A DNA stretch of 62,961 nucleotides, the filler included, from Dugesia japonica (lineage: Eukaryota): the NCBI GenBank assembly GCA_001938525.1. It is 6 parts of 6 records of this genome, joined end to end, with 100 filler letters (N's around TTAATTAATTAA, not from the genome) between each part and the next. Parts side by side here need not be neighbours in the genome. Positions count along the whole stretch, not along the records: positions 1 to 13,119 come from MQRL01640162.1; 5 more parts are not named here. The stretch is one strand, 5' to 3'. Under the pieces are notes generated by a model. The model saw nothing but the letters and a program-made list of their open reading frames with translations, made no database searches and was not told the origin of the DNA. Position numbers and translations under genes: made by a program. This document shows positions 1-36,100 of this stretch, piece by piece (position 1 is the stretch's first letter; every line of letters begins with the position of its first letter).

Positions 1-33
1 TATTATTTATTTATTATAATTATTAAAACAAAC

Positions 34-3000
34 CTCAGAAAACATATTATGGAACCAGCATTCTCTCGGAGTTTCTGGAATCATATTTGTCGCTGCTTGA
101 GTTCTTTCGAGGATAAACACTGCTGCTTGTATGATGGAATTATATTTCAATTTCATAATAATATCTTTGTTCTTTAAACTGTCTTGAGAATCGATTTTAT
201 CGATTTCAGACTGTAATTGATGTGCCTTCTTGTTCAGCTCATCATAACATTGTCCTAATGAAGAAACCCACAATTCATCCCACAGAACAGTAATCCGCCT
301 CAATTCTTTAATGAATACACTCACTTCATCTACTAGCACTTTATTACTATCGACGAGAACTTTTTTAATTTCATGATAAAGTGAATTGTTATTGGAATTT
401 TCATTTATTGATCCAACTAATGTTGGATAGATAATCAATTTACTACAATTATTGCTCGACACTGCCAATCGTTGTAATAATTCCGACATGCACATTCGAA
501 TCGTTTTATCACTGTGTTTTAATCGAGCAAATAACTGTGGAATCACATTTGTCCAAGATCCAGGAGGACTCATTTTTATTTTATTTATTATCGAATCTCG
601 TAAATATCTTGATCGTTTACCGAGCAGAGATAATATTCTCAAATTTGCTGTGGTTTTATTTTTATTACATAGATTATCTTTGCTTTTCACTGGAGTTGCA
701 TCTTTNNNNNNNNNNNNNNNNNNNNNNNNNNNNNNNNNNNNNNNNNNNNNNNNNNNNNNNNNNNNNNNNNNNNNNNNNNNNNNNNNNNNNNNNGCCATTT
801 CAAAGGTTATATCCGGATCAAGAGCTAAAATCGATTGTTTCAGTTCAAGTAGGAATGCTGAATCTTCATAGCAATCACCAAACCAATCGGATTCTGATTT
901 CATTTGCGAAGGACAAAAATTACTTTTCAGTAACAATTCAATGTTTGTGATCATTTCATTGGTAAACCCGTGTTTCTCTAATTTCAATGAAAAATCCACT
1001 GAATCCGAATTGAATCCAACTTCATCGAGAGATCTAGATCTATTCAGACACCATTGTGCAAGTGTCATGAAACTCTTATCACTGTTGTCTTGATTTCGTG
1101 ATTTACTTGCCAAAATTAGTAATTGGCTGCAAATATCAGTTACTGTCGATTGACATGTTTTTTCCATTGATCGATGTTGCGGAGAAACCAAAGGCAATCC
1201 ACTAATCCAGGGAACTTCGGCCAACTCAATTAGAAATTGTAAATTACTCGATATTTTACTGTCGCTACAAATAATACTCGAGAACGCATTTTTATCGTTA
1301 CATAACCACATAAATAGAGTCAACAAAGATTTCGTATTCAATTGACATTTAGAACTGTGTAAAATCGAATCACTTGTTTCGAATAAAAGACTTTCTTTTA
1401 AACTACTAGTTAATAACAAAAGAGCGTCGTTTTTTTTCTCTTTTTCCCATAGTAATTTAACTAATTCTCTTTCGAGTTGCATTTGTATAATCGGAGACTG
1501 GGAATTACTTAGAGAAACTTTTTGCATCATTTCTCGACCGAGAAACGTAGAAAATGAATGAGAAATTAAATTTTGGCATTTTTCAAAGTTGAAATGTTTT
1601 CTATGCCATTGAATGAGATATTTTTCGTTGGAAAACTGTTGCGGTAAATTGTAAGCTTTCTGAATTGTGTTACAGAAACTAATAACCGATAATGGCAGGA
1701 TAGTTGAATAATTTGAGAGATTCTTACAATCGACAATTAGATTTTCGGCGGATTTATTTGCTAATTTGAAAAATTTTAATCGTTCACTAATTAAAATGAT
1801 GTCGGAATTGAAAAAATTACTCGGAAAGTCACAAATCGATTGAATTGATGACAAATTCCCGATGAATTTTTCAGTGTCGGATGCTTTTTCTGGCGAATGA
1901 TCAACGACAGATCTGTACAAAATGTCTTCGCAATGATCAATTACTGATCTATATTTCCAGGTCAACTCATTTTGTCTAAGAGGAACACATTCATCATCTA
2001 AATTTTCATTATCCCATTTCGATAATTTACTAAGGCAAATCAGTCTTTCCCAATTTATACTCGATTTTTGTGCTTCTACCATTTGCGAGTTGGATTTCCA
2101 TAATTGAATCTGTTTTTTCCACAATTCCAATCCATCGATATTATTCAATAATTTATAGCAATCAGCAATTTCTTCCATACACAAAATAAACGAGCTGTGA
2201 CTAGTTGCTTTTCTCGTTAATAATCTCATTTCAGATGATTGCTTTATTCTTTCTGGATCATGGTGGTTTCTTACGTAATTTTCAAACTTCGTTAAAGCTA
2301 ATTCTAATTTCCCTACGGTTTTATCAGCCAATGCCTCTATCCAATCGAATTTACTACCATAAGTTTCTACTGACAACTGACTTAAACCGACAAGACTTTC
2401 CCAATTTCCTAATTTACTGAATGCCATTGATGTCAAAACAATGCAATCTTCTACTTCAGGCACTAAAATTCTCGCGGCAGAACTCGAATGAAAATTATTC
2501 ATATCCAAATGATGTTTGAGAATTTGCATTCCATGCCAAATAACAGTACTCCATTGACCGGAATATTGAGCTAATGCTACTATGAACAACCTCATTTTTA
2601 TAAACCATTCAATACAGACATGCTTATTAGTGACGAAAAACGTTTCTGTGGATTTATTAACAGATGGTAATCCAATACAACAGCCTTCATAGGAATTATA
2701 GAACATTTTCTCTAAAACATCTAGCAAGAGAATCATTAAATTCACTGACAACGACTGATCTTCTGGAGATTTTGTGGTGAATTTAGTCATTAATTTNNNN
2801 NNNNNNNNNNNNNNNNNNNNNNNNNNNNNNNNNNNNNNNNNNNNNNNNNNNNNNNNNNNNNNNNNNNNNNNNNNNNNNNNNNNNNNNNNNNNNNNNNNNN
2901 NNNNNNNNNNNNNNNNNNNNNNNNNNNNNNNNNNNNNNNNNNNNNNNNNNNNNNNNNNNNNNNNNNNNNNNNNNNNNNNNNNNNNNNNNNNNNNNNNNNN

Positions 3001-5523
3001 NNNNNNNNNNNNNNNNNNNNNNNNNNNNNNNAACACATCTTTATTATTGAAACTGCATCTGTCAATACTATCTATAATCCACTGGAAAATTGATTTACTA
3101 AAATCTATAGGAAATTTAAATGATCGTCCAGAGACCGACATCGCTTGAATGGATTTAATCTCTTCACTAAACGATTCCTGAGAGATTGGAGTATCGTTTT
3201 TACTAAGTAAATCAAAGTAAATCTTGAAACATTTACTCCTAATCAAATATGACGANNNNNNNNNNNNNNNNNNNNNNNNNNNNNNNNNNNNNNNNNNNNN
3301 NNNNNNNNNNNNNNNNNNNNNNNNNNNNNNNNNNNNNNNNNNNNNNNNNNNNNNNNNNNNNNNNNNNNNNNNNNNNNNNNNNNNNNNNNNNNNNNNNNNN
3401 NNNNNNNNNNNNNNNNNNNNNNNNNNNNNNNNNNNNNNNNNNNNNNNNNNNNNNNNNNNNNNNNNNNTGTTGTTGTTGTTAAATACTACCGATTTATTTT
3501 CATTCATTGTTTTTTTGAGTAAATCAAACGCGATAGATTTCGATTCAGAATTCAAACTTGAAGTGTTAATCATTAAACAAAGAAATTTTATGAAATCTGG
3601 AATCATTTCGGAACCGAGTTCTATTTTCGATACGGTATTCATGATGAAAATTGCGACCGAAGGAAATTGATGAATAACTGATGATTCTGTGAACAATAAA
3701 TATTTCGTAAATAGAACCGGAATAGATGGAACTAAAATTGAAGTAGGATCATCCCGTAATCGATCGTATAGTAACATTATTAAGTTGATATTGTATTTAA
3801 CAACGGGTTCCGCTTGTAACGGTTCGTAGGATTTCGTTTTAAAAGCATTACTTTGAACCAAACGAACTAGATTTGTACAATTCGATACTTTCATGAGGAT
3901 ATTAAGAGCTAATTCGAGGTCACTCAGTAGAATTTGATAGAATGTAGTCACACATTGAGATTTAGCGATTATATCGACGAGTCGTAGATATTTTTCCAGC
4001 ATTTTATTGTCAGAACAAGAACCGTAAAATATGCACGAATGTATCCAATTAACTGGAGATAGAATCTGTACGACTGTGTTTGGTTCGAGATTAATTTTCA
4101 CTAAGCAAATACTAATCAGATTCAAATAAGAGATTATCAGCTCTCGGTTATAATAATTGGTGTTGCTGCTACCTTCTTGGAGGATATGAGATTGGAGTGG
4201 TACAGATGTTCCGATCACATAACGAAATACACTTTGATAAACCGTTCCAACCGATTCGATTTTGTTCAAAATGAACAGCATGTGAAGAATAACCGTATTT
4301 GATTGTAGAAGAAGATTGTCGAAATCGATTTGTTTGCTGCATATTATTAAACTTTCGACAAATTTTTCAATTATACCAACAATGAAATAATTCGGTAGAA
4401 TTTCAGAGAAATTCTCCGAGAATTCCACATTAAAATTGACTTCGGTAACATCAGATATTTTACTGATACCCGCTGTAACACAAGATAATGCGAAACAGAA
4501 GAATTTGATTTTCATTTTGAGTTCATCGATTTGAGAACGTTCTTTGTCTATACGATGAATTCTAGATAACATCTGACAGTGTGTTAATACGTCTTTTTGG
4601 AGATTTGTCACTGTTTTCTTCAAATTAACCGGATCAGCTATCCAACACTCGTGTAAATCAACACTACGTTCGTACAATGACGCCATAGTTGTCAGATCTG
4701 TGTCCGGGTGAATGCACCACCCAATCATTATGTCGATAACATTGTGGAATCTCTGCACAACACATTCCGGACAATGATTGTAAACTCTGTTCAATATCAT
4801 CAATGACAGATTTAAACATTTCGGAAAACAGAGATTTTCAAAAAAGTATTCCCAACTGTGTAGAAATGTGTCTTTGTTTGATTTTAAGTTATTAATTACG
4901 CCATCAGTTGCAAATTCGATCATTTTCAGGAGCATTTTCAAAATTTGCAATGTGTACTGTTCAATTTGTAAATTCGTCATTTTATCGAATATTCGACACC
5001 AGAAATCAATAACAGCTGCATCACCGCGACGAATATTCAAATGAAGAAGATTCATCATTAATTGGCTAGTTACATTAATGAAATCGTCGGAACTTGCGGA
5101 ATCACAGATGCACAACTCTAAAATATTTATCATTTGATCGGAGAATTTATTCTGTGGAACTATTCCGTCTTGATTATTTATCAATAATAAGATTTCCTTG
5201 GCAACCCCTATTTTCTCTGTGTCACTATCAGATATCGATATTTTTCTAATCAATGGTGCAAGCGCGTTTAGCGGTTCGATTGTTCTTCGCATTTTTTTCA
5301 ATAAATCTTGTCGACGGCGTTTTAATTCGTTGTCATACTCTGTGATGACTTTCGTTTTATTAAGTTTTACTGGTTTTATCTCCTCAATTTCCCGGTCGTG
5401 TAATCTACTCATGATATCATAACCATTACTATCGATTTTTCTATAATTATTAGTGTCAGCCAAATAGGCTTTATTTTGTTCGTCGAGAAACGCTGGATCT
5501 AATATTTCTTTTTGTATGCACAT
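34..5523 (-). CDS. smg1: SMG1 PIKK-family kinase (nonsense-mediated decay), N-terminal ~1830 aa in one giant exon; kinase exons lie beyond the window start
   Basis: SMG1-typical motifs FHNVIDIMIGW, WTNVIPQLFARLKH, ELRRITVLWDELW and PETPRE. The ORF ends at a GAG|GTTTGT donor (GT at 33-32). The true start may be in an upstream exon. Confidence 0.9.
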
Positions 5524-5859
5524 TTGTAAATAGTTCTAAAATTAATATTAAAATGATGAAACGGAGAATTTATTTGATAGAAAAANNNNNNNNNNNNNNN
5601 NNNNNNNNNNNNNNNNNNNNNATTAACCCGTTCCAGGTAGGTCATGTTGCTCTGAATACGTATTTCAATCGGATTATATGCATTAATATGTTGAACAAAA
5701 ACATTTTCTATAATATAAACACATTTACAAACCAAATATTTACTTTTCTCGTTCTCAAATATAGAGAAAATATCATTCGAACATACACGCTATTTATTTA
5801 TAAATCCCATTAATACAGGATTGATTATAAAAGTCGCATTATAAAGATGTTTGATATTG

Positions 5860-7612: not shown

Positions 7613-8502
7613 TTCTAAATTTATATATTAATTAAATGTAATTTATCATTTTTTTTCAAGATCAGATGAAAAAAGGAATACTATATTCATTGTGAAATAC
7701 GTATTTACCCATATAAACCATATTAATAAAACAAAGGTATTTAACAATTTTAAATAATAACGACTAGTTACCTCTTGTCATAAAAAAGGCTTTATTTAGT
7801 AATAGAGAAACAAATTAATTAAATTGTGAAGTAAATTCAATTATTAATAAAAATATTATATTGATAAAACATAACTTAAATCATGAATCAAATCGTAATG
7901 ATAAAATTAGTCTATAAATTAAAATTTTGATTAAATTTTTTTGTAAAATGAAATTCAATCAGTAGTTTAATAGTAAAATTATTTGTAAAGTTTAGTTGCA
8001 GTTTATTTGTCAAATTAAATTCAATCAATAGTCTAATAGTAAATAATCAAAAAAATATTCATAAGATCTTTTATTAGTTTTAAAAATTAATTATCAAAAT
8101 TAATTTTTACAAAAAGTTGAAAGGTCATATAGGTTAAAAATCATTTAATGAAGAGCCAAAATTTCGAGATTAGTGATTTATTGCAAAAATATTAAAGAAG
8201 ATTTATGGAAAATAAAATTAATAAAATAAATTATTTCGGGAATTCGTTTATAAGCGAGAGTTTCTTCTTTAACATAATCAAGAGTTACGTGATTGAGTTA
8301 TCAGAATGTGTTATCTCAAAAGTGACGCATTTCGATTTCTTTTATGAAATCATAGATTATGGAATCACAAATTGCAACTTTGAAGTCGAATGATAATTTC
8401 CCAGGAATCACTAAAATTATCAGAAATTTGTTTTATTTTAATAAGCTAATCTACAAAATATGTAAATGTGCAATTCTTCTACCAATAATTTGCGGTGCCA
8501 AT

Positions 8503-8602
8503 AAGTCAATTCCTGACGAATACAAAGTTGAAATATCGATTCAATCTCAAAAAATCAATAACAAATATATTTTTGATCGAAGCTTTTATTTTAAATGAAT
8601 TA
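8503..8602 (+). ncRNA. Penelope pLTR fragment with degenerate minimal type-I hammerhead ribozyme
   Basis: AATTC-CTGACGA-A-TACAAAGTT-GAAA-TA-TC-GATTC; same repeat as 61856-61947. Confidence 0.6.
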
Positions 8603-11600
8603 ACTTACTTATTATTATTGTTGAATTGCTTATTGTTTTTAACTCGAAACTTACCAGGAATTGATTGATAGTGTTTGGAATGCAATAATATTTTACTTTG
8701 GATTTATTTTGATTATTTTATATAATTCTGATCTTGAAGTCTATTGTAATTTTATTAATTGTACTATTTTAATAATTACTAAATTTCGTTATTATAATTC
8801 TTTTTATTAAATTGCTGTAAATAAATTTAGTTTTGATAAAATGGTAGCAGCAACAAATACTGACTCTATCACAGGGAGGCTGTTGCCGAAAGTTTTTGGC
8901 AGATGCGATGACCTCAAACAATTTATAAAGTTGTTGGGGTGAAACATACAGTCTGAAAAGGAAGCCAAACGAATAGTCAAAAGGGAAGAATTAACAAAGA
9001 AAAAGGAGTAGAAGGAAAGTCAATCAGGAACAAAGCACCTACGATGAAAAAGAAATAGTACATTCATCAATCAAAGAAATCACAAGGAATTAGTATGAAT
9101 AACCAGTATGGCTAAAGCAGAATAAAATTAAGTAATAAATAAAAAAATTAAAAAATACTGAGAAGATTGGATAAAAGATCTTGGAGGAATTAATTTGGAC
9201 CACATTGATGATGATAATCAAAAATAATTAAGAAAATAATTATAATAAATCAAGGAAATTATGTTTGAAAAAACATTTAATTACCAAAAAATATTAATTA
9301 AGACGGAATTAAAGTAAACTAAAATTAAGCATAAATCCGTTTTTTACGAATAATTTGGCTCCAGATAACCGCAGAGATTCGGAGAAAGAAAGTCTGAGAA
9401 GAAATATTAAGATTTTGTAACCAAAAAACTCTGTCACCATCAGAAAGATCACCACAAGGGTTGGAAAAATGGGCCAATAAGGGTTCAAAAAATAAAAATG
9501 GAACAAAGCCACGAAGATCACTTGGCGTTCCAAAAATAAACGCCAATTAGAGTTCTAAAACTCTATAAAAAATTTTTGAAATTGGCGCAATGACCAATGA
9601 AACGACAGAAATTCGAATAAAAAATAGCTGGCCAATACCAAACAAATCGGGGTGTCACCGTAAATGGTATTTAAACCCACTAGTTTTAGACAGAAACATG
9701 CTCAAAAAACATTCACTTTAACCGTTTAACAGTTGCGTTATAATCGAGAAAATCCAGTATTAATTCTATACGAAATATTGTATCACACTCGGGGAAATTT
9801 ACTATTTAAAGGAAAATATTCCCACAAATCATTTATCAGCACCTATTTGGAAATCGATCTCGAACGACAATAATCAAGTAATTCGGTTTACTACCAACGT
9901 AAAAATAACTGTTTATTGAAAAGAAAAGGAACAATTTGTTCAAAACAGATATTGGCAATTTGGAAACTGATCAAGGAAAAAAACTCGCAATTAAACCGAA
10001 ACCCGTTGCAGAAAATACTCTCATTAAAATAAAATATTTTTCTTTGTTTCTATTCACTGTATTATGTGTGAAATATATATTTAAACTGTTAACAAATATA
10101 ACTTTCAAATTATTATAGTTAAATTATTAAGTTAGAAATTGAAAAGGCGAATAATGAAACTTTATTTATCATATAACCATAAAAAACAATTTTACAAATT
10201 ACCCAGATATGACTTATAACTGCGGAATCTGTTTTTCCGTAATACTATTACAACTATCGGTGACCTATGCCACAAATAACTCTTTTCGCTGTTATTTATG
10301 ACTGCATGTAAATCCNATGGTCCTGAGTTTAGCATCCACATCGAATATGGGAAATTTCTTCACCGAGAAGCTTAAGCATGCTTACGTTTCACTGCTATTA
10401 AGAAAATCATGCTGATAGTCTTAAAAGGGCATGATAAATCCGTAGAAAAAATTCCATTTGAGGATTCGACAGGAATGAAATCTAAATTTCCACCAACTTA
10501 GTTAATTATCAATCGACAATCAGATATTAATTGCTTCTGAAAATCATCCGTTAAAACAGCATTACATCATCCCTCTGTAATTTATGAGTTACTATTGACC
10601 GTATCACTGAGTCACTAAAAAACATTTCACTCCTTCGCTAAAGAAATATGCCACGGTGTCTGCCATATTGTAGCAACCTGATGACTCATTCTCGCCAACC
10701 AGCATGCATCAACACTAGCCAGTTTTACGCTCCTAGTACACAATAGTAATTTCATTGATGACTAAAGGAGATTAAGTGGTAACGATCTAAGTATGGAATT
10801 CCTGGCAGTGTACACACATAGATTGTTAAATTTAAATAGCGTTAAATATTATAACTGCAAAGTAAATAACTCCAATTCAACTTTGATTTCGTGTTGTTAT
10901 CAATCGTCATGCCGATATTGTTGGTGTCAATATTAATTAGTTATTAGGTTTACTGATCTTCTAATTATCTTGCTNGGTATCACATTTATCACCGTCGCTA
11001 TTGCCTGATACTTTCATTATCAATAATGTAGCACGAATATTAGTATTATTGCGGTCAATTTTATGACTATTGTTACTAATATTGTTAATATTACTATTAT
11101 TATTAATATTGATATCATTATTTCATTATTATTAGTATTAGCACTATGCATACTATTGTTATGATTATTTCTAATATTTTATGATTAAAATTAGATTCTG
11201 ATTAATAACGTTAACCTCACAAGAATTGGGCTTTCTGTTAGTCACTAGCATTATCATCCCGGTCAGTATTATAATAAAGGATGTTAATTTCACGATGACG
11301 TTAGATTTATTTTTGTTCTGGGTCATTGAAATTTAAATTTTCGGGTAATCAGGGTGTACTGTTAAAAGAAGGAAGGAATCATAAATTTGGTTATCAAAAC
11401 CCACTTGATTGGTTAGGCACACTCCGCTCCGTTTAGTCTATTAGTAATAATTATATTCTGAATACTGACGTCTGCAGGGCAGTCCATAACTGAATTCTGG
11501 TTATATTTTAAGGTAGCATAAGTTAATTTCTCGGTAACCCAGATCCAACTAGTGTGATTGAATTCAGTATTGGCGATTTTTTTTGTCGAGAACTCCGGCA

Positions 11601-11752
11601 GTTCCCATCACTACCCACCTAGGGATATATAGGGAACGGTTCAACTACAACGCCTGGATAAGTGCATAATGATTTTGCATTCAAGAGTGGTGGTATGAAA
11701 AAATTAGATTCTTTCCTTCGCAACTACAAATAAACCTTATTATATTTAGACC

Positions 11753-11935
11753 ATGATGTCAGAATTGAAAAATGCCCTTCACACCATTCGTAAACGACGC
11801 AAGACTGCCCGTCTTAAACAGTTACTCGCCCATCTTTTATCGCGACGCAGGATCGAACATCCCGATGAGACGCACTTGTGTCGTTTCGTCGAGATGTTCT
11901 CTCTGTATAATCCTGTAGACCTCAACGAAGAATGA
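11753..11935 (+). CDS. LTR-cassette ORF1, 60-aa basic helical protein
   Basis: Homologous to 45889-46071 (TIRK.R...RLKQL..H...R.R.EHPDET.L..FVEMF); preceded by a TTTAG acceptor. Confidence 0.75.
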   Translation: MMSELKNALHTIRKRRKTARLKQLLAHLLSRRRIEHPDETHLCRFVEMFSLYNPVDLNEE

Positions 11936-12125
11936 TAGCAATAAGTGAGTATAGAAACACTGGATTTTGATTACTTTTGTTTATAATAAATGTGTTAGAA
12001 TAGTTAATCCATTTACTAACTCTTAAAATCCTTTTTCGTGCTAGTAAAAAATAGTTAAACAAGAACTTTCGAGTTCTTTTTCGTAATAAATTAAACATGT
12101 TTTGAAAAGTAATGTTTTATTCTAG

Positions 12126-12484
12126 TGCACTCTTTACTAAATAGATCGCAGGCCCCGACCAAGAAAGTCCGTGAGTCCAGCAAGAACTTAGAGATGACCT
12201 ACGACGTTTACAAACTCGCTAAACGTCGCTGGGAAGCCGATACTGCAAACGCCAATATCAAGGTGAAAAGGTACAAATATAAGTGTATGGCTTTTAAAAA
12301 TGAAGCCGAAGCATCCCACACACAAGATAGAGTATGGAAAGCTCAAATAAAGACATTCACAGAGATTATTCGGTCCTACCAAGACCGCGAGAATAAACTG
12401 GTCCGGGATATCTTGAAATTGAAAACAGCGATGCCCCTCGAATCATTAATGGTCGATAAGGGTACACAAACGGCACGCCCGTGA
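12126..12484 (+). CDS. LTR-cassette ORF2, coiled-coil protein with C-terminal DKGTQT (LC8 motif); exon lacking its own ATG
   Basis: Homologous to 46858-47197 (PTKK.RE.S...E.T.D.YKLAKRRWE...KVKRYK...EIIRS..D.ENKLV.DIL...LM.DKG); begins at TTCTAG|TG. Confidence 0.75.
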
Positions 12485-12611
12485 ACTCATTTATCTATAA
12501 TTTTATCTTAATAAACTTGTTTATATTCTTAACTAAATTTCTTGGTGTTATTGAGTATCGAAAGGATTATTATGATTAGGTGGTAGTAAAAGTTAATAAC
12601 TTCTTGTTTAG

Positions 12612-12973
12612 TGCCCCGGATCCAACTTCCAACTAACCTAAAACGGTGCCATCGGCTGATACAGAAACTATTATTCGAGCGCCATCTCAAAAGACAAAAT
12701 GAGAGGGCTCTGTTAAAACAACTCTCTCAACGTAACAAACTAATTAAAAAACAAGACATGATTGTGAAAAAGCAAAACGACGTAAATGAACAAACAAAGC
12801 AGCTCTTACAACACAAAGTGGAATTTTTGAAGCGGTATATCGTGGACCTATCGCGACAACTTGGTAACGCAGCATGGGTTCATTGGAACGACAATGATGA
12901 TGAGGCTGCCTTTAATTTTTTTGATATTGATCCGACCCAGTGGTTAGAACCGGGCGCTTTAGATTTGTTGTAA
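12612..12973 (+). CDS. LTR-cassette ORF3, coiled coil plus acidic/aromatic tail; exon lacking its own ATG
   Basis: Homologous to 47321-47703 (EFLK.YI.DLSRQ.GN, AAFNF, QWL.PGALDLL*); begins at GTTTAG|TG. Confidence 0.75.
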
Positions 12974-13119
12974 ATTTTAAGCATTAATAAACTTTAGTCT
13001 CCATACTTTGTTAATTTTGAATAAGGGAAAATAAGGAACCTGAAGTAAAGGTGCACGAGTGAGAACCTCCCGTAAAGGTCGAAGGTCAACCGCTCTGTAC
13101 CGAAAATCTTACTTAGGGG

Positions 13120-13219
13120 NNNNNNNNNNNNNNNNNNNNNNNNNNNNNNNNNNNNNNNNNNNNTTAATTAATTAANNNNNNNNNNNNNNNNNNNNNNNNN
13201 NNNNNNNNNNNNNNNNNNN
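13120..13219. other. Artificial contig-joining linker
   Basis: N44-TTAATTAATTAA-N44 (stops in six frames). Confidence 0.97.
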
Positions 13220-14510: not shown

Positions 14511-15159
14511 GTACTATTACCTTGTTTATATTATTTAGACACAATATTTACAACAAAACACATAAATATTTGAAAGCTATTAATAATGATTACCAATATC
14601 ATTTACAAAGGAAAGGTATCACAAGAAATAGTAGGCAAAGAAAGTTTTTAATTGATAAACCGTCACAAATCGTTAATAAAAGTAGAAAGTATACAATTAT
14701 TCTTTTAAATCAAGAAATTTTAGAATCATAGGTTTCAAGAAACAAAACGAAATGAACCATTTACAGTATAAGGATTAAAAAGACATTTGTTTTTTGTATG
14801 ACATCGAGTACAGCACTTGAATTTAGCATATTATGTGCATTTTCAATTCGTTTTTCGTTTAAATCATGATATACCTTCGCAATATTTTTGATAATCGAAT
14901 TATCACAAGAAACAAATAGCTCTCATGATATACAGATCTCACAAACGAAAGTTATATTCATTTAGTAATTATTAATATCAACCTTTATTATTTCTTTGTT
15001 AAGACATTGTTGAATAATTAAGATAATTTTATTTAGAAAAATCAATAAATATACTTGTTATTATTACTTAATTTACTTAATCTGCTTAATCTTTATTATG
15101 ATAACTGTCATTTTGAAATAATCTTTCTATTGAACATCTCTCTTATGAAGTCATAACTA

Positions 15160-15252
15160 TTTAAAATAAAAGCTTCGATCAAAATTTGGTTTTTCTTGGT
15201 TTTTTGAGATTAATTTGATATTTCGACTTAGTTTTCGTCAGGAATTGACTTT
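15160..15252 (-). ncRNA. Penelope pLTR fragment with hammerhead motif
   Basis: Minus strand reads AAGTCAATTC-CTGACGA-AAACTAAGTC-GAAA-TATC-AAATT. Confidence 0.6.
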
Positions 15253-15754
15253 TTAATTTATTCAAGATTTATGTTTATAATGGTAACATTTTTTGAATAA
15301 ATTTTTGTAATTAATTTTAATTGGTTAATTTTAATTCTTATTTACATTTAATTATTTAATTTAATTATTGTAAATTATTTATTTTAGGATAGTCTTCTTT
15401 GATTAGTATTTCTTCATGTTTTTTACCTATGTAATGTAGAAATGTAGCCTGTTCCTAGTGTTTTCCATGTTATGTGATGTTGTTCTTTGTTTGTATTAAA
15501 AGTGTTTGAAGACTTTGCCTTCTTTCAGAACCCTCCGGAACAAGAATTAAGGACTATGTAACACAAAAAGAAAGCGAAGTCTTAGGCTTATACAAGTCTC
15601 ATAGTACCAACCGCTACTGAAGTTAGCCAACTAATTCGTCACCGAGATTATTTAATGCGCCTCTACAAGCGACATGCAAGTCACGAAGGCAATGAACGGT
15701 ATCGCCTTCAGCTGGTCAAGACGACAAATTTTTACTGGTTGTTCCAAACCTAAG

Positions 15755-21495: not shown

Positions 21496-21595
21496 NNNNN
21501 NNNNNNNNNNNNNNNNNNNNNNNNNNNNNNNNNNNNNNNTTAATTAATTAANNNNNNNNNNNNNNNNNNNNNNNNNNNNNNNNNNNNNNNNNNNN
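21496..21595. other. Artificial contig-joining linker
   Basis: N44-TTAATTAATTAA-N44. Confidence 0.97.
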
Positions 21596-21755: not shown

Positions 21756-22888
21756 TCAACTAAAATTTTGTGAGAAATGTTCTTGCATTGAATAATTTAA
21801 TTTTGATATTATTGCGTTCCGATGATTTTCATTTGTTGCATCTTCATAATACAATCTTTCATTATCGAAAATATGGAAGTGGCATCTTCTTCTAATTGCA
21901 GATTTCTGGGCCTCATTCGAATTTTCATTAATAATTTTTTTAACTATATTGGAACATATAATAATCTTTGTTTGGGTGGTTATTACCCGTTCTATATTTG
22001 AAATTTATCGAAATGTCATAGTTTATTAATTTATTAACTTCTCTGCGGTCCATTGATGCAACGGTAAGTCATCAATTACGCAACCGTCGTATTGATATTT
22101 TGTCGGACCTAATTTGCCGAAGTCCTGGCGAATAGTTATATGAATTGCATTGTCAAATAGGCTTAGTTCAAAATTTGTTTTACCTATTCCTAAAAAGATG
22201 AAATTTATAATATTTTATAATTAGATATTTCAAAAACATTACCAGTTCCAACTATAAAGATTTTCGTCCTGTTATCTTCCTAATTAAAGAATGGGATTCT
22301 CCATTTTTTGTTGAAATTGGCTTTCGTCACTGCCTCTAATCTAAAAATCAAAACACTCTGTAATTTAGAGTAAATCTTGATATAATCAAGTGATCGTTAT
22401 TTTTCTACCATTAAAAGCCCTGCTTCAACACTTTCACTTTCCAGAAAATGGGTCCAAAATGTTTCATCTTCAACTTTTTTGCGATATCCAAATTGAATTT
22501 TTAGTCAATTTGTAACCGCATTTTGAAAATGGCCGCATTGGTTCAAATATTTATAGACATTTTCGTAATCAATACATGTAATTATACACATAAAAAATAT
22601 ATATATGTCTAAGAAAATATTACCTTTTATTTCGATTATACCTAATAATGACAATGCCGCTTGAAAAGTCATATTATGCTTGAATGTAATGAAACATTCA
22701 AATATGGTACCACCGGTTACATCAACGTCTTGTCCAATAAAGAATTTGGATTTATCTTTTTTTAATATAACAAATTGCTTTCTGATTTCTTTGAAGTGAC
22801 TGGTGATGATATGGAAGCGGAAATTGCGGTATCTTTTGTTTCCTCCAGTTGGCATATTATCTGTATGTATTTCATTATTGCCTCTCAT
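21756..22888 (-). pseudogene. CRESS-DNA-virus-like Rep (HUH endonuclease + SF3 helicase) with introns 22242-22190 and probably 22623-22576
   Basis: Motif I-like RNFRFHI, degenerate motif II GGTIFECFITFK, Walker A VGTG|IGKT split by a GT-AG intron, Walker B DGCVIDDL, motif C KII.CSN (frameshifted) and Arg finger AIRRR; several in-frame stops. Confidence 0.8.
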
Positions 22889-22894
22889 CAGGTT

Positions 22895-23450
22895 ATTTTT
22901 GTTTTATTGAGAAACTTATAACATTTTATTTCTATTGAGTAACTCAACAAAATAAATAGTTTTGAATTATTATAAACCTAACAAAGGCAAGTAATTTTAC
23001 TTTATGAATAATTTCATGACATCTTAATTTTTATAAATTATAATTTGATTTATTTCAGAAATACATGAATTTAAAATAAATTAAAAAGATATAAATAAAC
23101 AAAAGGTAATTTTCAAAAAATCTTTTTTTATTTTATTGAGTAATATAAATTTGTTTTTTAAATTATTGGAAAACTCAAATTTTTGTTTAATTGAAAAACT
23201 TATAACTTTTTATTTTTATTGAGTAACTCAATAAAATAAATAATTTTTCATTATTATAAAATTATAACTTTTTTAAATTATTGAGTAACTTATATCTTTT
23301 TATTTCTATTGAGTTTTTCAATAAAATAAATAGTTTTGGATTATTATAAACTTTATTATGAATAATTTCATGACATCTTATTTTTTATAAATTATAACTT
23401 AATTAATTTCAGAAATACATGAATTTAAAATAAATTAAAAAGAAATTAAA
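22895..23450. repeat. AT-rich direct-repeat array with hairpin units (TTTTATTGAGT-A-ACTCAATAAAA) upstream of the Rep
   Basis: TATTGAG(T/A)AA units recur about 6 times; 22905-23085 is duplicated at ~23280-23450. Confidence 0.7.
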
Positions 23451-23457
23451 GTATAAA

Positions 23458-23781
23458 ATGAAATAACAACGAAGTATTACATTTTTTACATCATTAAATA
23501 AATCTTCAAAATCGGCGAGAATGCAAATTTTGAAATCATTTCCAACTTTTGTTATGGATGATTTAATTGAAATTATTATTAATATTGTTCGCGGAAATGT
23601 AAATGTGAGCAACTCTAGAAAGGAAGTATTAAAAATACATAAAAGAACGCTATTAACACTTTTAAATACAAAAAATAGGAAATTGATGAAGCGAGTAATA
23701 CGAGATAATCAAGGAGGCGGCTTTATAGCAGCATTACTACCAATTGCATTAGCAACCCTAGGATTAACTCATTTCAAATAA
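23458..23781 (+). pseudogene. Polinton/adintovirus small conserved protein (GG|F maturation-site type)
   Basis: EIIINIVRGNV...LKIHKRTL...NQGGGFIAALLP pattern directly upstream of the integrase; stop at codon 3 from the ATG at 23458, ORF intact from 23521. Confidence 0.7.
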
Positions 23782-23893
23782 AAAAATTATAGTTTTACAT
23801 CAGCAGTACTAATATTATTTCATTTCAAATAAATAAGGAGTGGTTTACAATCATTACCTAATTTTGATTTCAAATTTTTATCTTATTGTTGTA

Positions 23894-24118
23894 ATGGGCA
23901 AGCTGAAGAAGATGTGGACGGACCCAGAAAATCCCGCAGGTTTTCATGGCTTAGAAAAATTGATGAAAGCAGCACAAAAAACAAAAACAAAGACCAAAAA
24001 GTGGTTATCGCGTCAACGAGCGTACAGTCTGAACAAACCAATGTTGAAAAACATTTCCGAAGAGAGCATATATAACGTATGATATTGATGATTTATGGCA
24101 AATGGATTTGATGGAGAT
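23894..24118 (+). pseudogene. Polinton retroviral-like integrase N-terminus (truncated)
   Basis: MWTDPENPAGFHG...KWLSRQRAYSLNKP, then frameshifted FPKRAYITYDIDDLWQMDLMEM (first DDE Asp). Confidence 0.85.
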
Positions 24119-24307
24119 GAGTAATAGAGAAACTACGACTTGCTTGCAGTAACCACTCTTCAAATCCTCCCTTCGGCATAAAAGATTACTCTAATTTTGG
24201 TATATTAATTTGGTGCGGTATTTTAATCCCAAAGGGCCCCATTGTTCTTGCCAGTGGATATTCTATATTAAATTTTCTATCGGCAAGTCGTAGTTTTTCC
24301 ATTACTC
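24119..24307. mobile_element. MITE-like element with ~25-bp TIRs
   Basis: GAGTAATAGAGAAACTACGACTTGC ... GCAAGTCGTAGTTTTTCCATTACTC; no TSD seen. Confidence 0.7.
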
Positions 24308-24417
24308 GTTACTTGTTATAAGTCTTTTCGTTTTTATGATTTGTATTTTGTGTATTGAATTTTAAAAAATCTAAATTCATTGAAAAAAACAATTCAATTA
24401 AATTGTTTATAGTTAAA

Positions 24418-27400
24418 ATGGTTAGTAATCAGTTGATTTGTAAAAAGGTTTTTAAAAATAAATCAGGATTAGCAGATCATATTGGATCAAGATGTTGTCT
24501 TTTAGACAGAACAAGATTTAATTGTTCAAAATGTCTAAAAACGTTCAGAACTATGAGGGAATTGACCGAACATTTGAATTCTACTGATTGTGGAAATTTA
24601 AAGAAGGTTCCGTTGTTTTGTGAAGTTTGTTATGAAAAGTTTTCAAGACAAACTCATGCAAAAGCCCATTTTAATTCAAAATCACATAAAAAAATGGTCA
24701 ACAAAGTATTTTTTGAAGACTTACCTAGAGAAGAAGTAATTGATTTCAATCCAGAAATTTGAGACATCTTCAGAATGTACCAAAAAATCTATGAAATCGA
24801 ATATTTTAAAGAAAGTAAAGTTGAATTAACTATAAATGTTAAAAGTTTAGAAATACCAGTAAAAATGATTAATGAATTTCAGAAAGAAATCCAAGAAATT
24901 ATTACAAAGTATTTCAACTATGAAAAAAAGATTATTGTCCGAATCAGTGTAAATTGTAATTATAATAAAGATGTTAACGGTGAAGAAGACGAAAAAATTT
25001 TTAATTCGTATTCAAGTAATAAACAAATTACATTAACAAGTGAAATTAATGATAAAGTTAATAATATTTTAAATCACCTTCAAACATAAATTGAAGATGA
25101 AGATAGACGTTAATCAGGATGGAATCTAAATTATATAGTTGATCATAAAATTGAACTTTCAAAATATCAATCTATAGCTGGAGGGAAATCATCTTATCAA
25201 AAATTATCTTTTTCTAAACAAGGTGTCATTAATATTAAAAATAAAGATGAAAAATGTTTTTCCTATTGAATTTTAGCCCATAAACATTTATGTATTGATC
25301 CAACTAGAATAGAAAAATATATTCCTTATTTAGATGAATTAAATACTATTGGAATTAAATTCCCTGTTCATATTTGTTATGTAAAAAAATTGAAAAGTTA
25401 AATGAATGGAAAATAAATTTATTTGTTGTAACCGAGTTTAAACAACTTGAACCTTTGTATATTTCGCATTATGAAACTAAACCCAAACCAAAAGAAAATA
25501 AATGTAATTTATTAGTTTATAAAAAACAATTATATTTTATGCGGATATAAAAGTGTTTTATACAAAAAATAGAAATAAAAATCATTTGTGTATTAGATGT
25601 ATGAATTGTTATTATAGCAAAGACTTATTAATTAATCATCAAAAAGAATGTATTAATCATGAAATTAGTAATGTAGTTTTTTCTAAATATCAGAACTATT
25701 ATTACAAAAATAAAATACTTTTTTTAATTTATGGAGACTTTGAATGTTGGACTAATTCATCAACTAAAAAACAAAAACCACTTTCCATTGGTATTTATAT
25801 AGTAAGTAAATATCAAACTTTAATTCGAAATTAATACAAAGAATTTTATGGAGAAAACATTCATCAAGATTTCTTTGAATTTTTAAATGGACTTATTAAC
25901 AAATTAAAAGACAAAAGAAAATAAATTAATTGAAACTTATATTGGAACTAACCATCCAGAATTTACTAATCAAAATTGTAGATATTGTGATCAAGAAATG
26001 GGATTTGAAACTCCAGTAATTGATCACGATCATTCCAATGGTGAATTTAGAGGTTATTCACATTCTAAATGTAATTTACAAGATAAATCGATAAAAAATT
26101 TATTTATTTCTTTTTACTTTCACAATGCATATGGATATGATATTCATTTATTTTTTAAAGAAGTAATTATAAAATATACAAAAGAAGTTAGAAAAAAATT
26201 CCTCATAGTGATGAAGTTTACATTTCCTTTGAACTTGTAAAACCTAAAGAACCCTCAATTATATTTATAGATTCATTAAGAATGTGTACTCTTACTTCAA
26301 TTGAAAAAGTGGGAGAAACGTAAAATCAATCAGGAAAATATAATAATTTAAAATTTTTTAATTTAGCTCCGAAGAAAATTTCATTTCCTTTTGTATATGT
26401 AAAAGTAGAAAATATAAATGAAGTAATTGAATTATTAAAAAGAAACCATCCACCAACAGAACAAGATTTTTTCAATATATTAAGACAAAACAAAATAACT
26501 GATCATTAATACAATGAATTTTTACAAGATTTTATACAATTCAATAATCTTTGGGAATACATGTTACATTACATGAAAATAGATGTAATTATTTTAGCTG
26601 ATAAATTTGAAAATTTTAGAGAAACATGTTTAAATAATTATCAAATTGATCCAAATTATTGTTATTCAGCTCCGGGTCTAAATTGGAATGCAGGTGTGAA
26701 ATTTACTCAAGTAAAATTAAAATATGCTCAGAAAAAAACTTATGATAGATTTATTAAAATTGAAAGATGAGTTAGAGGTGGTTATTCTGGTGTTTGTGGA
26801 GAAAGACAAGTTTTTGGAAATAGTAAAAGAAATGATAAAAAAATAAATAATGCTCAATTAGATGATTTATTAAATATATTTACAAATCCTGAACAATATC
26901 TTCCAGATGATTATTTTGAAGAAACATTTTTAAATATTTAGATGAGAATTCTTTGTATGCTAGTTGTATGACAAAAGCATTACCAACTGGTGACATCTAT
27001 GAATGTAAGGATTTAAAATATATTAAATTAACAGATAAAATTAATTATGTTTATGAAGTTGATTTAGAATATCTAAAAAAGATTCATGAAAAGACTAAAT
27101 ACTTTCCATTAGCACCAGATCCTTTAAATATTACAAAAGAAATGTAAGCACCTTATCAATTATCTTTTGATAAAAAGTTGAGTAAGAAAAATATTAAATT
27201 AACATTGAATCAATTTCATAAACAAAATTATATTATTTTAGGATCAACATTCCATTTGTATATTTCTTTAGGAATGAAAATATTATAAATACATTCTAAA
27301 TATAAAATGACTACAAAACCTTAGTTAAAGGATTAGATTCAATTTAATATCAATCAGAGAAATGAAGCTAAAAGAACAAACGATGTTTTTGGTGATGTCT

Positions 27401-28200: not shown

Positions 28201-28929
28201 CGGTAACAATTAAAATTAAATTGTAATCTGGGGATGGGACCTTTTGGGATTTTAAAGGGTAAAAATGAGGAATTCAAAATAGAAATAGGATGGGACCTTT
28301 TCTTGCTTATTAATTATAAAACCTTTGCCCGCGGGCACATTTTTCAACTTGGTAAAATGGCTACTAGAGAAAACATAAGTGTGATCATTAAAGATGTAAA
28401 AAACTATAGAGTTTATGAATTATTTAAAACAAGAGTATACCAAATTTATTAACTTTACATTAAAAGAACAAAGTGTAGTTTTAAATGGAAATTTACCCAA
28501 AGTTTGGATTATATAAAAAAGCAATTAGTTTAGCTGATAATATAATTAATAAATTACAAAGTGAATTATAAAATACCAAGTGCCAAAATGAAACGCTTAA
28601 AAGAAATATCGAAAATAATAATATTAAAAATAAACAAATAAAAGATACAATGAGAAAAATAAATAAACAAAACAAACACTTCAATAAATTATTAAATAAA
28701 ATGACTAGTGAAATAAATGTAAAAAGAAATGTATAACTTTGTAAAAAATTATATTAACTTAAATAAAATATTTGAACAACAAAACATTTAATTATATTTT
28801 CAATTATTATCATTTGTATAATTGTTTGTTTAATTCCAATTGTAATCCCATATATAATTGTTTATGTAATTGAAAATTTAATCTCAAATATAATTCCATT
28901 TATAAATTCTTATTTTTTTACTAAAGAAA

Positions 28930-29361
28930 ATGGAAAGTAGAAAAGATTTCAATGTTAATGGTAATGATTCAATTAATTGTGCAAATTCATTTGTTTCAAC
29001 ATTATTTATTAAATCTCAGAAAATTTATTTAGCAGAAAAATATCATGAATTATGTTTTAAAAAACCAAATTTTAAAGATTCAGACATTGCTAAAGAAATT
29101 GGAATTACAATTCAAGCTTTAAATAAAACTTTAAGGGAATTGAATTTAAAACCAAAAGTAAAAATATATCCAAGGGTAAAATATTTATTCAATGAACAAA
29201 CAAATAAATTTATGAAAAATAATTATAGAGTTCATGTTTTTAATATTAAAACTAATACATTTGAATTGATAGAAGTTTTACCCAAATATACTTTAACTGA
29301 TAAAAGAAATAATTTTATGTCAACAAAATTAAAAAGTAATTCAATTTCAAATTTAAAATAA
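28930..29361 (+). CDS. Polinton-associated HTH-like protein
   Basis: DSDIAKEIGITIQALNKTLRELNL; clear homolog at 50165-50680. Confidence 0.6.
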   Translation: MESRKDFNVNGNDSINCANSFVSTLFIKSQKIYLAEKYHELCFKKPNFKDSDIAKEIGITIQALNKTLRELNLKPKVKIYPRVKYLFNEQTNKFMKNNYRVHVFNIKTNTFELIEVLPKYTLTDKRNNFMSTKLKSNSISNLK

Positions 29362-33038: not shown

Positions 33039-33138
33039 NNNNNNNNNNNNNNNNNNNNNNNNNNNNNNNNNNNNNNNNNNNNTTAATTAATTAANNNNNN
33101 NNNNNNNNNNNNNNNNNNNNNNNNNNNNNNNNNNNNNN
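33039..33138. other. Artificial contig-joining linker
   Basis: N44-TTAATTAATTAA-N44. Confidence 0.97.
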
Positions 33139-33164: not shown

Positions 33165-36100
33165 TTTGCAATGTCATTTGTATTCAATCCTCACAAATGG
33201 ATGCTTGTCAACTTTGATTGCTGTGCTGTCTGGTAAGATTTATAATTTAACTTAGAAAATGTTAATTCATTTATAATCATTAACACTGTAAGTATGGTTC
33301 GAGACAATTAAATTGTTTGATAGTTAGACAGAAATTAGTTTAACTAAATAATTTACTTAACATCATACAAAAAAGTTAGAAAATTTAAACATTTCAATAT
33401 TTCAAAATTATTAAAATGAAGAAAAAGCTTCGATCAAAATAAAATCTATTTGTAAAGAAATTCAAAAATAATTTCTTTACAAATAGATTTTATTTTGATC
33501 GATGCTTTTTCTTTATTTTAATGAAATCTCAAATGCGATCAATATTTAAGTCCAACAATTATTCTCACAATAATTGCAATTATAAAATTTAAAAATTATG
33601 TATTAATAATTAATTTTTAATTAATGGCTTAGTTCAATAAAATAATTTTAAAATGTAAAGTTTAGAATAATTTTCAAATAAATGTTGAAGTAAATAATAA
33701 TTTGATGTAATTTTTAAAAATAGTTTAATCGGAATTTAATTTTTATAAAAATCTTCTTCAATGAAATTTCTCTGAAATTTAATGAAAAATTTGGATTATT
33801 TATAAAACTTTATAAAAAAGATAATTTTCTAAAATTTAATTTTTTTTGATTATTAAATAATTTTTTAATTAGCTTCGGTCAGAATTAAATAAAAATGTTT
33901 AGGTTGTTTTTAAATTTGATTAAAAAGACAAATTTACAGTTTCTTGTTTTTGTTTAAATATTCGAATATTCTAATGAATATTTAAACAAAACCTTCAAAC
34001 AAAGTAACAGTGATTTAAATATTTTAAAAAATCTTACCAAAAAACCAATTAAAATTTGTAAATTTGATAAGGGTAATGGTCTTGCAATTTTGAATGATTA
34101 TATAAATAAAAGAGAAGATGTTTTGTAAGTACCGTAATTTTGTAAAATTAATAAATTTAATAAAAATGGTAAACTGCCACCAATCAAAGACAAAGAATGT
34201 TTGAATGGTTTATTAGGAAATTAAACAGTGATTAACTTCTTGATTAGGAATTGTATAAGGTACTTAAGATGGATTGTTCACAGCCAGATAACCTGTATGG
34301 TCTTCCTAAACTCCATAAGAGCAATGTTCCTATTAGACCTGTGCTATCTATGATTGATAAAGCTCAGTATAATACTGCTAAGTATTTAGATAAGAAAATG
34401 AAACATTTGATTGACTCCAAATATGAATGCAAGGATAACTTTGTTTTCTTTAATTTTATTTCTTATTCTGAAGTTGTTAGTAGTACTGAATGTATGATGT
34501 CTTTGATATTGTTAGTTTTTTTAAAAATGTTCCATTAGATGAAACTTTTAATCTTTGTTGTGAATTTTGGGAGAAAAAGTTTTTTGAACCTAATTTGTTA
34601 ACTGTGACTGCCTGAAGTAAATTTTTGAGCTTTGCTATGTCTAATACACATTTTTTGTTTAATTATGAATAATACATACAAGTTGATGGAGTTTCTATGG
34701 CTTCACCTCGTGCTCTTACTTTAGCTTCTTTGTTTTTGTCGAATATGGATGAAAAGATTGACTTGTTTATTGGAAATAAACCACTAATGTATAAACACTA
34801 TATGAACTATATATTTCTGGTTTTTAATAACCAAGTAGATATTAATCCGTTCTAAATTATAATAATTCATTGCATAGCAAAATTAAATTCACTACAGAAA
34901 TGGAATGTAAATCTAAACTTTCTTTTAATGACTTATTAATAGATAGAAAGTACATTCATTATTACAAACCAATGGATACAGGCTTGTATACATCTCCTGT
35001 TGGTTTTTGCGAATCTCGTTACAAGTAAAACATGATTAAAGGACGTTTGTATAGATCGTATAGAATGAAGTCTTGTGCTAATATTCAAAAATTAACTTTT
35101 TTGTTAAATAAAAATGGTTATTGTAAATCAATTGCGGAGAAATTAAATCAGGAAACAGTTGATAAGATCGTTTATAAAAATAATAATGAAATTAAAGATG
35201 TCAATAATAATGATAACAATAATTAAGATTGTGAAAATATTATCAAAGACCCAAATAATATAGATAAGTTTAATTACGTATTAACTATTCCGCATTCAGA
35301 AGGATTTAAACAATTTAAGAGTGAATTGTTATTAAAATATAGAAATGACTCTTTGAATTTTAAAATTGTTTTGAAATCTTATTAAATCATCAATACGTTT
35401 AGCAATAAATCTAAAACACCAATTCAATTGTGTTCTGATCTTGTTTATATATATGAATGTAATGGGTGTAATACCACATACATTGGAGAGGGTATCAGGA
35501 AAATATCCCCCTGGACAATTCCCCGGAAAAAATAATGTTTTATGAGATTAAAACCGAAAAAAATTTTTTTAAAGCAAAACTTACAAGTAAACTATTTAAG
35601 AAAATAAATTTAAAACAAAAAGATTTTGACAAGTTTTATTTTAATTAATAATATTTAAATATTTAATTAATAATATTTAATTTTTTTGGGTTTTAATATC
35701 ATAAATAATTATTTGAAAAAATTATTACTTGGAATTGAAAAGAAAAAAATATTTCACTTTCAAATTTTGTGCAAAAACTATAAAGATTATTGGGAGAGAG
35801 TCAGTCATGTGTGAAGCATTGATGATTAGATTAATTGATACAAAAATTAATGTTCAAACTGCTCTTTTTAAATCTTAATTGAATGTTTTTAATTAATTTG
35901 ATTTATTGAAGAGATTGCATAATTGTTTAAATAATCAGAATTTTTTCTGTATAATAATTTTTTAAAAAATTGAAAAAAAGAAATAAATATTGTTTCAATA
36001 ATGAATTTTCAAAAAAAAACGAATTAATTTATTGTATATAAAGATGAGATGTAATACAAAAATATTTATTTAAATGACGTTTTAAAGTTTTTATTAAAAA

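Follow-up and report, generated by a model that had tools for sequence, protein, structure and literature searches.

A candidate LC8-binding motif in the tail of an orphan, predicted coiled-coil exon of a high-copy repeat unit in Dugesia japonica

The window analysed here, a stretch of 62,961 nucleotides of Dugesia japonica DNA, is AT-rich, with a GC content of 0.19-0.38 per 2 kb. Artificial TTAATTAATTAA linkers between runs of 44 N lie at 13120-13219, 21496-21595, 33039-33138, 43768-43867 and 52858-52957, and adjacency across them is not proven because they are contig joins. At the left end, the N-terminal part of an SMG1 kinase forms a single open frame of 1842 codons on the minus strand (7-5535), whose closest match reaches 62% and whose arthropod matches are at about 35%. 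Polinton/Maverick-like fragments (51223-52242, 22505-26240, 52604-52909 and 28906-29361) include an ORF matching the double-jelly-roll capsid family PF21738 and a C2H2 zinc-finger ORF, while their broken ORFs presumably are polymerase- and ATPase-like. Besides, there is a homeobox exon (PF00046; 61144-61518, minus strand), which we take to be goosecoid-like, and a family of short palindromic MITE-like repeats at 8500-8600, 15159-15265, 33410-33587, 36814-37069 and 61696-61953.

The rest of this report deals with a repeat unit which occurs in the window as two copies, A and B, and whose features are collected in Table 1. In one DNA run (X1), 2357 contigs align to 8600-13119, and the summed contig depth rises from 23 at 8751-8901 to 304 at 8902-9052. 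The left terminus of copy A lies at this step.

Table 1. Coordinates of the repeat unit and its parts, counted along the whole window
Feature	Position	Strand	Remarks
Copy A, unit of about 4.3 kb, high copy number	8932-13119	+	right end lost in contig-linker gap
Left terminus of copy A, TGTTGGGGT	8932-8940	+	inverted match to right end of copy B
Block common to A and B	9420-9640		copy B: 43890-44110; codon-position identity 0.55/0.72/0.65
ORF1, copy A	11750-11935	+	61 aa, basic orphan; after acceptor-like TAG (11747-11749); 58% identical to B
ORF2 exon, copy A	12126-12484	+	directly 3' of acceptor-like TAG (12123-12125)
PTKKVR, candidate monopartite NLS	12155-12172	+	copy B counterpart PTKKLR
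Predicted single helix, ORF2 residues 26-106	12188-12430	+	heptads rich in aromatics; putative coiled coil
LC8-type motif VDKGTQTA	12452-12475	+	in predicted disordered tail; TQT at 12464-12472
ORF3 exon, copy A	12612-12973	+	after acceptor-like TAG (12609-12611); basic helix, coiled coil, acidic-aromatic tail
Conserved non-coding block near right end	13021-13109		72% to B 47767-47857; best RNA-covered bin, run X10
Copy B, distant subfamily	43868-47958	+	left end lost in contig-linker gap
ORF1, copy B	45886-46071	+	compared with copy A
Extra ORF, copy B only, between ORF1 and ORF2	46263-46705	+	after acceptor-like CAG; apparent frameshift near 46600
ORF2 exon, copy B	46858-47197	+	ends MIDKG + ACN at N gap
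ORF3, copy B	47321-47703	+	interrupted by two in-frame stops
Right terminus of copy B, ACCCCAACA	47950-47958	+	reverse complement of TGTTGGGGT

The ends of the unit were compared between the two copies. The left end of copy A agrees with the reverse complement of the right end of copy B at 9/9 and 12/15 positions, and the 8-mers TGTTGGGG (left) and CCCCAACA (right) have one occurrence each in the window. In 20,000 random draws, with the element-internal ones skipped, a TG-starting GC-rich 9-mer match was never obtained, and some 9-mer matched in 12.5%. The unit thus has TG...CA ends with a short inverted repeat, as expected of a solo LTR, the two ends being taken from two different copies. The first-pass annotation had labelled the frame with the motif as a retrotransposon ORF2, and this label found no support. 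Neither gag, RT, RNase H nor integrase was found by Pfam in the read-through frames or the small ORFs, where heavy decay could hide remnants; none of the 12 read-through frames taken 5' of the small ORFs, copies A and B included, gave a family at E<=1; no direct terminal repeat was found within copy A or B, each of which has one end in a gap; and the ORF itself is ATG-less and exon-like. The Rfam search gave 0 matches.

For the nature of the unit we weighed three readings. That it is a giant solo LTR we consider an even bet, while an internally deleted or other non-autonomous LTR element is possible at clearly lower odds. The giant Gypsy elements, such as planarian Burro and plant Ogre, likewise have accessory ORFs and a very high copy number, and the LTRs of Ogre measure 1.9-6.5 kb (PMC6431247, in its available part). 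The TG...CA ends of the unit fit an LTR as in these elements, which differ from it in that no gag, pol, env, BIR, MATH or BCL2 domain was found in the unit; for ORFs within an LTR, no description was found in the available part of PMC6431247. A Ginger-like DNA element is unlikely. Ginger transposons resemble the unit in their TGTNR termini, their length of 2.6-7 kb and their intron-containing genes, as given in the accessible text of PMC2836005. However, an integrase-like transposase was not found by Pfam in the read-through frames, the inverted match, compared between distant subfamilies, is just 9-10 bp against TIRs of 40-270 bp in Ginger, and the flanks (...AAAGT and ATAAT...) correspond neither to CCGG/CCGT (Ginger1) nor to RTATAY (Ginger2), the targets described in the same source (PMC2836005).

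Some further details of the unit stand beside these readings. A purine run followed by TGTTAG is present at 47855-47875 and in an RNA loose end after 13109, from a sister copy that is transcribed. We assume that it resembles a PPT/LTR boundary; it lies 90 bases before the right end and is unaccounted for by the solo-LTR reading. A PBS (8842), a PPT, a 92-bp LTR (47868-47958), an env-like stretch and, on the minus strand near 10330, a Copia protease motif were considered as well and dropped for lack of a Pfam match or a second copy.

Judged from the comparison of copies A and B, the unit carries orphan exons, three or four in number, on which purifying selection is strong. Synonymous differences far exceed nonsynonymous ones in ORF1 (pS 0.92, pN 0.29), ORF2 (pS 0.81, pN 0.27; 112 codons, Fisher p 5e-17) and ORF3 (pS 0.92, pN 0.26); the +1 and +2 frames are without such an excess, and one reverse frame of ORF2 mirrors it. 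All seven ORF starts (three in A, four in B) lie directly 3' of a pyrimidine-rich stretch ending in YAG. ORF2 and ORF3 are best read as spliced exons, because they share no ATG between the two copies and have acceptor-like sites upstream. An ATG made at the splice junction would fit 3/4 acceptors and fails for ORF2 of copy B, so that this idea was rejected, and a literature search on it found nothing relevant.

The C-terminal tail of ORF3 (AAFNF...QWL.PGALDLL; A 12884-12973, B 47617-47703) is strongly conserved, and the layout of ORF3 as a whole presumably resembles that of a transactivator. The ORF present in copy B only gave no family or fold, its predicted fold having a pLDDT of 37.5. Upstream of ORF1 in copy A, the segment 11250-11720 is GC-richer, protein-like and broken by stops, with no match in copy B. 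The common block at the left of the unit is probably non-coding, judged from its third codon position, which is without saturation.

In copy A the frame of ORF2 (12113-12484, plus strand) is open over 123 codons and has the C-terminal end ...LESLMVDKGTQTARP before the stop, the exon requiring one base from an upstream exon. Near the N-terminus stands PTKK(V/L)R, conserved between A and B, which we take to be a candidate nuclear localisation signal of the monopartite pattern. For the remainder, AlphaFold2, run on an alignment of the two sequences A and B, predicts one helix of about 80 residues (26-106), with 73% of the a/d positions hydrophobic in the best heptad register; these positions are no better conserved between A and B (13/22) than the positions elsewhere (32/56). 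Behind the helix follows a tail with pLDDT<50 at residues 113-115 and 117-123, which is predicted disorder from the same two-sequence alignment. The motif begins ten residues past the helix, stands four residues from the C-terminus, and is the single LC8-type site per chain; its register is V-5 D-4 K-3 G-2 T-1 Q0 T+1 A+2. As a sequence observation, the first-pass description of a coiled coil followed by the motif, with copy B reading into an N gap, was accurate, and the heptads of the predicted helix would fit a coiled coil, presumably a dimeric one.

The tail was then compared with published LC8 rules, which it satisfies at 7/8 positions. These rules, as far as given in the available part of PMC6607443, are a TQT anchor, a large or basic residue at -3, a polar one at -4 (Asp is named), a non-aromatic one at -2, and P, D or E favoured at +2. 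The anchor TQT is present at -1, 0 and +1, in copy A only, and K-3, D-4 and G-2 (neither aromatic nor Pro) agree with the rules and are all retained in copy B. The exception is Ala at +2, which is not among the favoured P/D/E; counted by eye, two binders and two non-binders in Table S4 of that source carry it, one of the latter being VSVSTQTA (PMC6607443). By the same count, [KR]xTQT is present in 21/79 binders and 0/32 non-binders, the nearest binders being NEK9 (HSKGTQTA) and SLC9A2 (REKGTQTS), although only 7/19 PSSM-predicted peptides bound LC8 (PMC6607443). Measured affinities of related peptides are 0.07 uM for VDKSTQTD and 0.08 uM for VSRGTQTE, according to the accessible part of PMC3078936.

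We modelled a 2:2 complex of ORF2 residues 84-123 with a stand-in LC8, 87/89 identical to solved DYNLL2. The model scored 0.80, against 0.22 for the best of three controls; its runs share at least 90% of contacts, and the partner pLDDT is at least 71. ORF2 residues 112-120 contact LC8 residues 59-70, so the check by complex modelling that had been proposed for the motif did place it in the LC8 groove, albeit that of a stand-in. In calibration, the score mark was reached by 51/78 solved and 2/108 mismatched microbial pairs, and by 39/65 solved and 2/126 mismatched eukaryotic pairs. The model shows likeness and not binding, because this calibration was without peptides and like complexes are already solved; its pass may reflect memory of solved LC8 complexes. 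Taken together, the sequence rules, the predicted disordered tail beside the helix and the complex model speak for the LC8 motif as claimed, and it is very likely that the tail peptide would bind LC8 in vitro. The motif would probably be a new member of the class of single-site LC8 clients, judged from its sequence.

Over six frames of the window, [KR]xTQT is expected by chance 0.98 times on average and was present in 60/100 resamples, [DS][KR]xTQT has a mean of 0.08 in 100 resamples, and DKxTQT was present in 0/100. When the 298 residues of the three selected exons of copy A were shuffled 200,000 times, the three patterns appeared in 0.83%, 0.088% and 0.027%, respectively. All these figures overstate the surprise, because the patterns were picked after the motif had been seen.

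Conservation of TQT across copies, which the first-pass annotation had named as a check, could be followed up to the last base before the gap of copy B. There, the ORF2 frame (46845-47197) is 58% identical to that of copy A and reads ...LEPLMIDKG with a partial ACN codon, followed by a 111-N gap from 47198. The residues D, K and G, together with bases one and two of the T codon, are the same in both copies; the codons of D (GAT/GAC) and G (GGT/GGC) differ synonymously inside the motif, and position -5 changes from V in copy A to I in copy B. Residues -5 to -1 are read as under coding selection because they are retained although the synonymous sites are saturated, and on the codon comparison the ORF2 exon is taken as coding and selected up to T-1. 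Q0 and T+1 are readable in copy A only, as the gap of copy B covers both. In the DNA contigs, 53 of which span position 12443, the best 40 of 596 difference rows include none in 12452-12475 and 10 in the rest of ORF2, which is weak evidence because length alone predicts about 0.7 in the motif. One DNA contig departs at 12460 and rejoins at 12542, and judged from it at least one copy may lack TQT.

These data bear on the reading that the motif is incidental. The tail would then bind LC8 in vitro, yet LMxDKG would be under selection on other grounds and TQT would be no feature of the family. TQT is seen in one of two copies, and the pattern was chosen after the fact, with its loose form expected about once per window; against this, D-K-x-TQT is rare in the exon shuffles, -5 to -1 are retained between subfamilies, and the best difference rows spare the motif, though weakly. 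We regard an incidental motif as rather unlikely, and a selected role of the LC8 motif in the element family as likely.

It is also quite improbable that the motif is untranslated. Here GT at 12462 would be a splice donor that joins ORF2 in frame to the ORF3 acceptor, which would make TQT intronic; the phases match, for the donor would split the Gly codon behind its first base and the ORF3 acceptor needs one base, and the stop-bearing end of ORF2 was unseen in the 82 aligned RNA reads. Yet copy B has GC at this place, a synonymous Gly change (GGT/GGC), and at 12510, past the stop of ORF2, there is an AATAAA, although this hexamer is common, with 7 in 11700-13119. Presumably GTACAC at 12462 is, besides, a poor match to the splice donor consensus.

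As for expression, 19, 38 and 25 RNA reads were aligned from 10.5, 13.6 and 11.6 million in three runs, of each of which between 6% and 25% was read. Most of the aligned reads (70/82) are less than 90% alike, and many are poly-A artefacts near 9121-9157, going by the loose ends listed. No splice joint was found among the 82 reads of the three runs, and the depth over the motif bin is 0, 0.37 and 0. Over ORF2 and at the right end, distant sister copies show weak transcription, which was not detectable for copy A; copies A and B look decayed and silent.

No homologue of ORF2 outside the source genome was found in sequence, structure, viral or metagenome searches. Proteins of near length gave 1 candidate and longer proteins, searched with the A+B alignment, 688, with 0 confirmed in each case; viral and metagenome contigs gave 4 and 95 pattern matches, again with 0 confirmed. 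Two matches among representative proteins (E 4e-5 and 6e-5) were rejected, both being unrelated acidic repeat proteins. In PDB sequences there were 3 matches, all at E>0.3, in Foldseek 0 at E<=0.001, in the structure-atlas search generic matches at 0.90 with recognition under threshold, and in Pfam and PHROGs sub-threshold coiled-coil matches only.

We compared the motif with known LC8 clients. The TQT-anchored ones, namely NEK9, SLC9A2, EML3, Bim, Bmf and Swallow, belong to the same eight-residue [KR]xTQT class in the part of PMC6607443 available, and the NEK9 site has six residues identical to the ORF2 motif. They share with ORF2 a disordered tail beside a coiled coil, which is predicted here; unlike them, ORF2 would be an orphan mobile-element protein with the site four residues from the C-terminus. 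Viral LC8 clients, such as rabies P, Ebola VP35, ASFV E183L, HPV E4 and rotavirus VP4 (Table S4, PMC6607443, in part) and foamy virus Gag (PMC3705263, in part), are likewise proteins of selfish elements with an LC8 site adjoining an oligomerising helix, both of which are putative in ORF2. However, no sequence or fold relation to them was found by Foldseek or in PDB, and ORF2 is an exon-like accessory ORF of an endogenous repeat. Taken alone the motif is ordinary, since hosts and viruses both have many LC8 clients.

Our preferred reading, to which we give a probability of about 55%, is that LC8 acts as a clamp on the dimer of a small accessory protein of the element, which is probably nuclear. 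The element family would make this protein by splicing, with a candidate NLS, a long coiled coil and a short disordered tail with one LC8 site. Two chains would pair via the coiled coil, and in the model one host LC8 dimer would take both tails as added beta strands and lock the dimer. Its role for the element would then probably be a nuclear one, either regulatory or in assembly. The accessible part of PMC7919418 argues for homodimerisation of clients by LC8 and against bridging. The first-pass annotation had inferred recruitment of LC8 for dimerisation or transport, or competition with Bim-like clients; dimerisation is favoured by the sequence rules, the context and the model, while no evidence was found for transport or for competition.

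It is very improbable that LC8 is the handle by which dynein would transport particles or RNA of the element. Foamy virus Gag offers a precedent, binding LC8 via its coiled coil with centrosomal trafficking (PMC3705263, available part), whereas no capsid or RNA-binding domain was found in ORF2 by Pfam, PHROGs, Foldseek or PDB, the motif occupies the same LC8 groove as the dynein intermediate chain, a Table S4 client (PMC6607443, in part), and LC8 was found homodimerising (PMC7919418, in part). We give the least credence to a decoy, a protein that titrates LC8 from apoptosis (Bim/Bmf-like) or silencing (Panoramix-like) clients. The motif lies near the peptides with the tightest measured binding (PMC3078936), LC8 is a subunit of the fly piRNA silencing complex (PMC7919418), and planarian Burro elements have apoptosis-related domains (PMC6431247), all by the accessible text of these papers; but ORF2 has one site per chain and very low RNA, and the LC8-dependent silencing complex SFiNX is, by the same text, specific to Diptera (PMC7919418).

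In conclusion, the preferred reading of an LC8-clamped dimer may be part of a wider one, which we hold unlikely: giant retroelements would carry a cassette of separately spliced accessory genes in a multi-kilobase LTR, and every solo LTR would spread this cassette through the genome. One gene of the cassette would encode a coiled-coil dimer, nuclear and clamped by LC8, with a role in regulating the element or in hindering LC8-dependent host silencing. No transposon-encoded TQT client was found in the literature searched, which covered few subscription papers and Repbase reports, and no spliced accessory ORFs were found there for planarian LTR elements; under the wider reading, ORF2 would be the first such client in that literature. 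What is unusual here is a selected orphan exon cassette in a TG...CA unit without a visible replication enzyme. ORF2 appears to draw on a host hub, LC8, which in flies has a further role in dimerising a transposon-silencing complex; if confirmed, this would offer a first approach to the function of such orphan accessory proteins.
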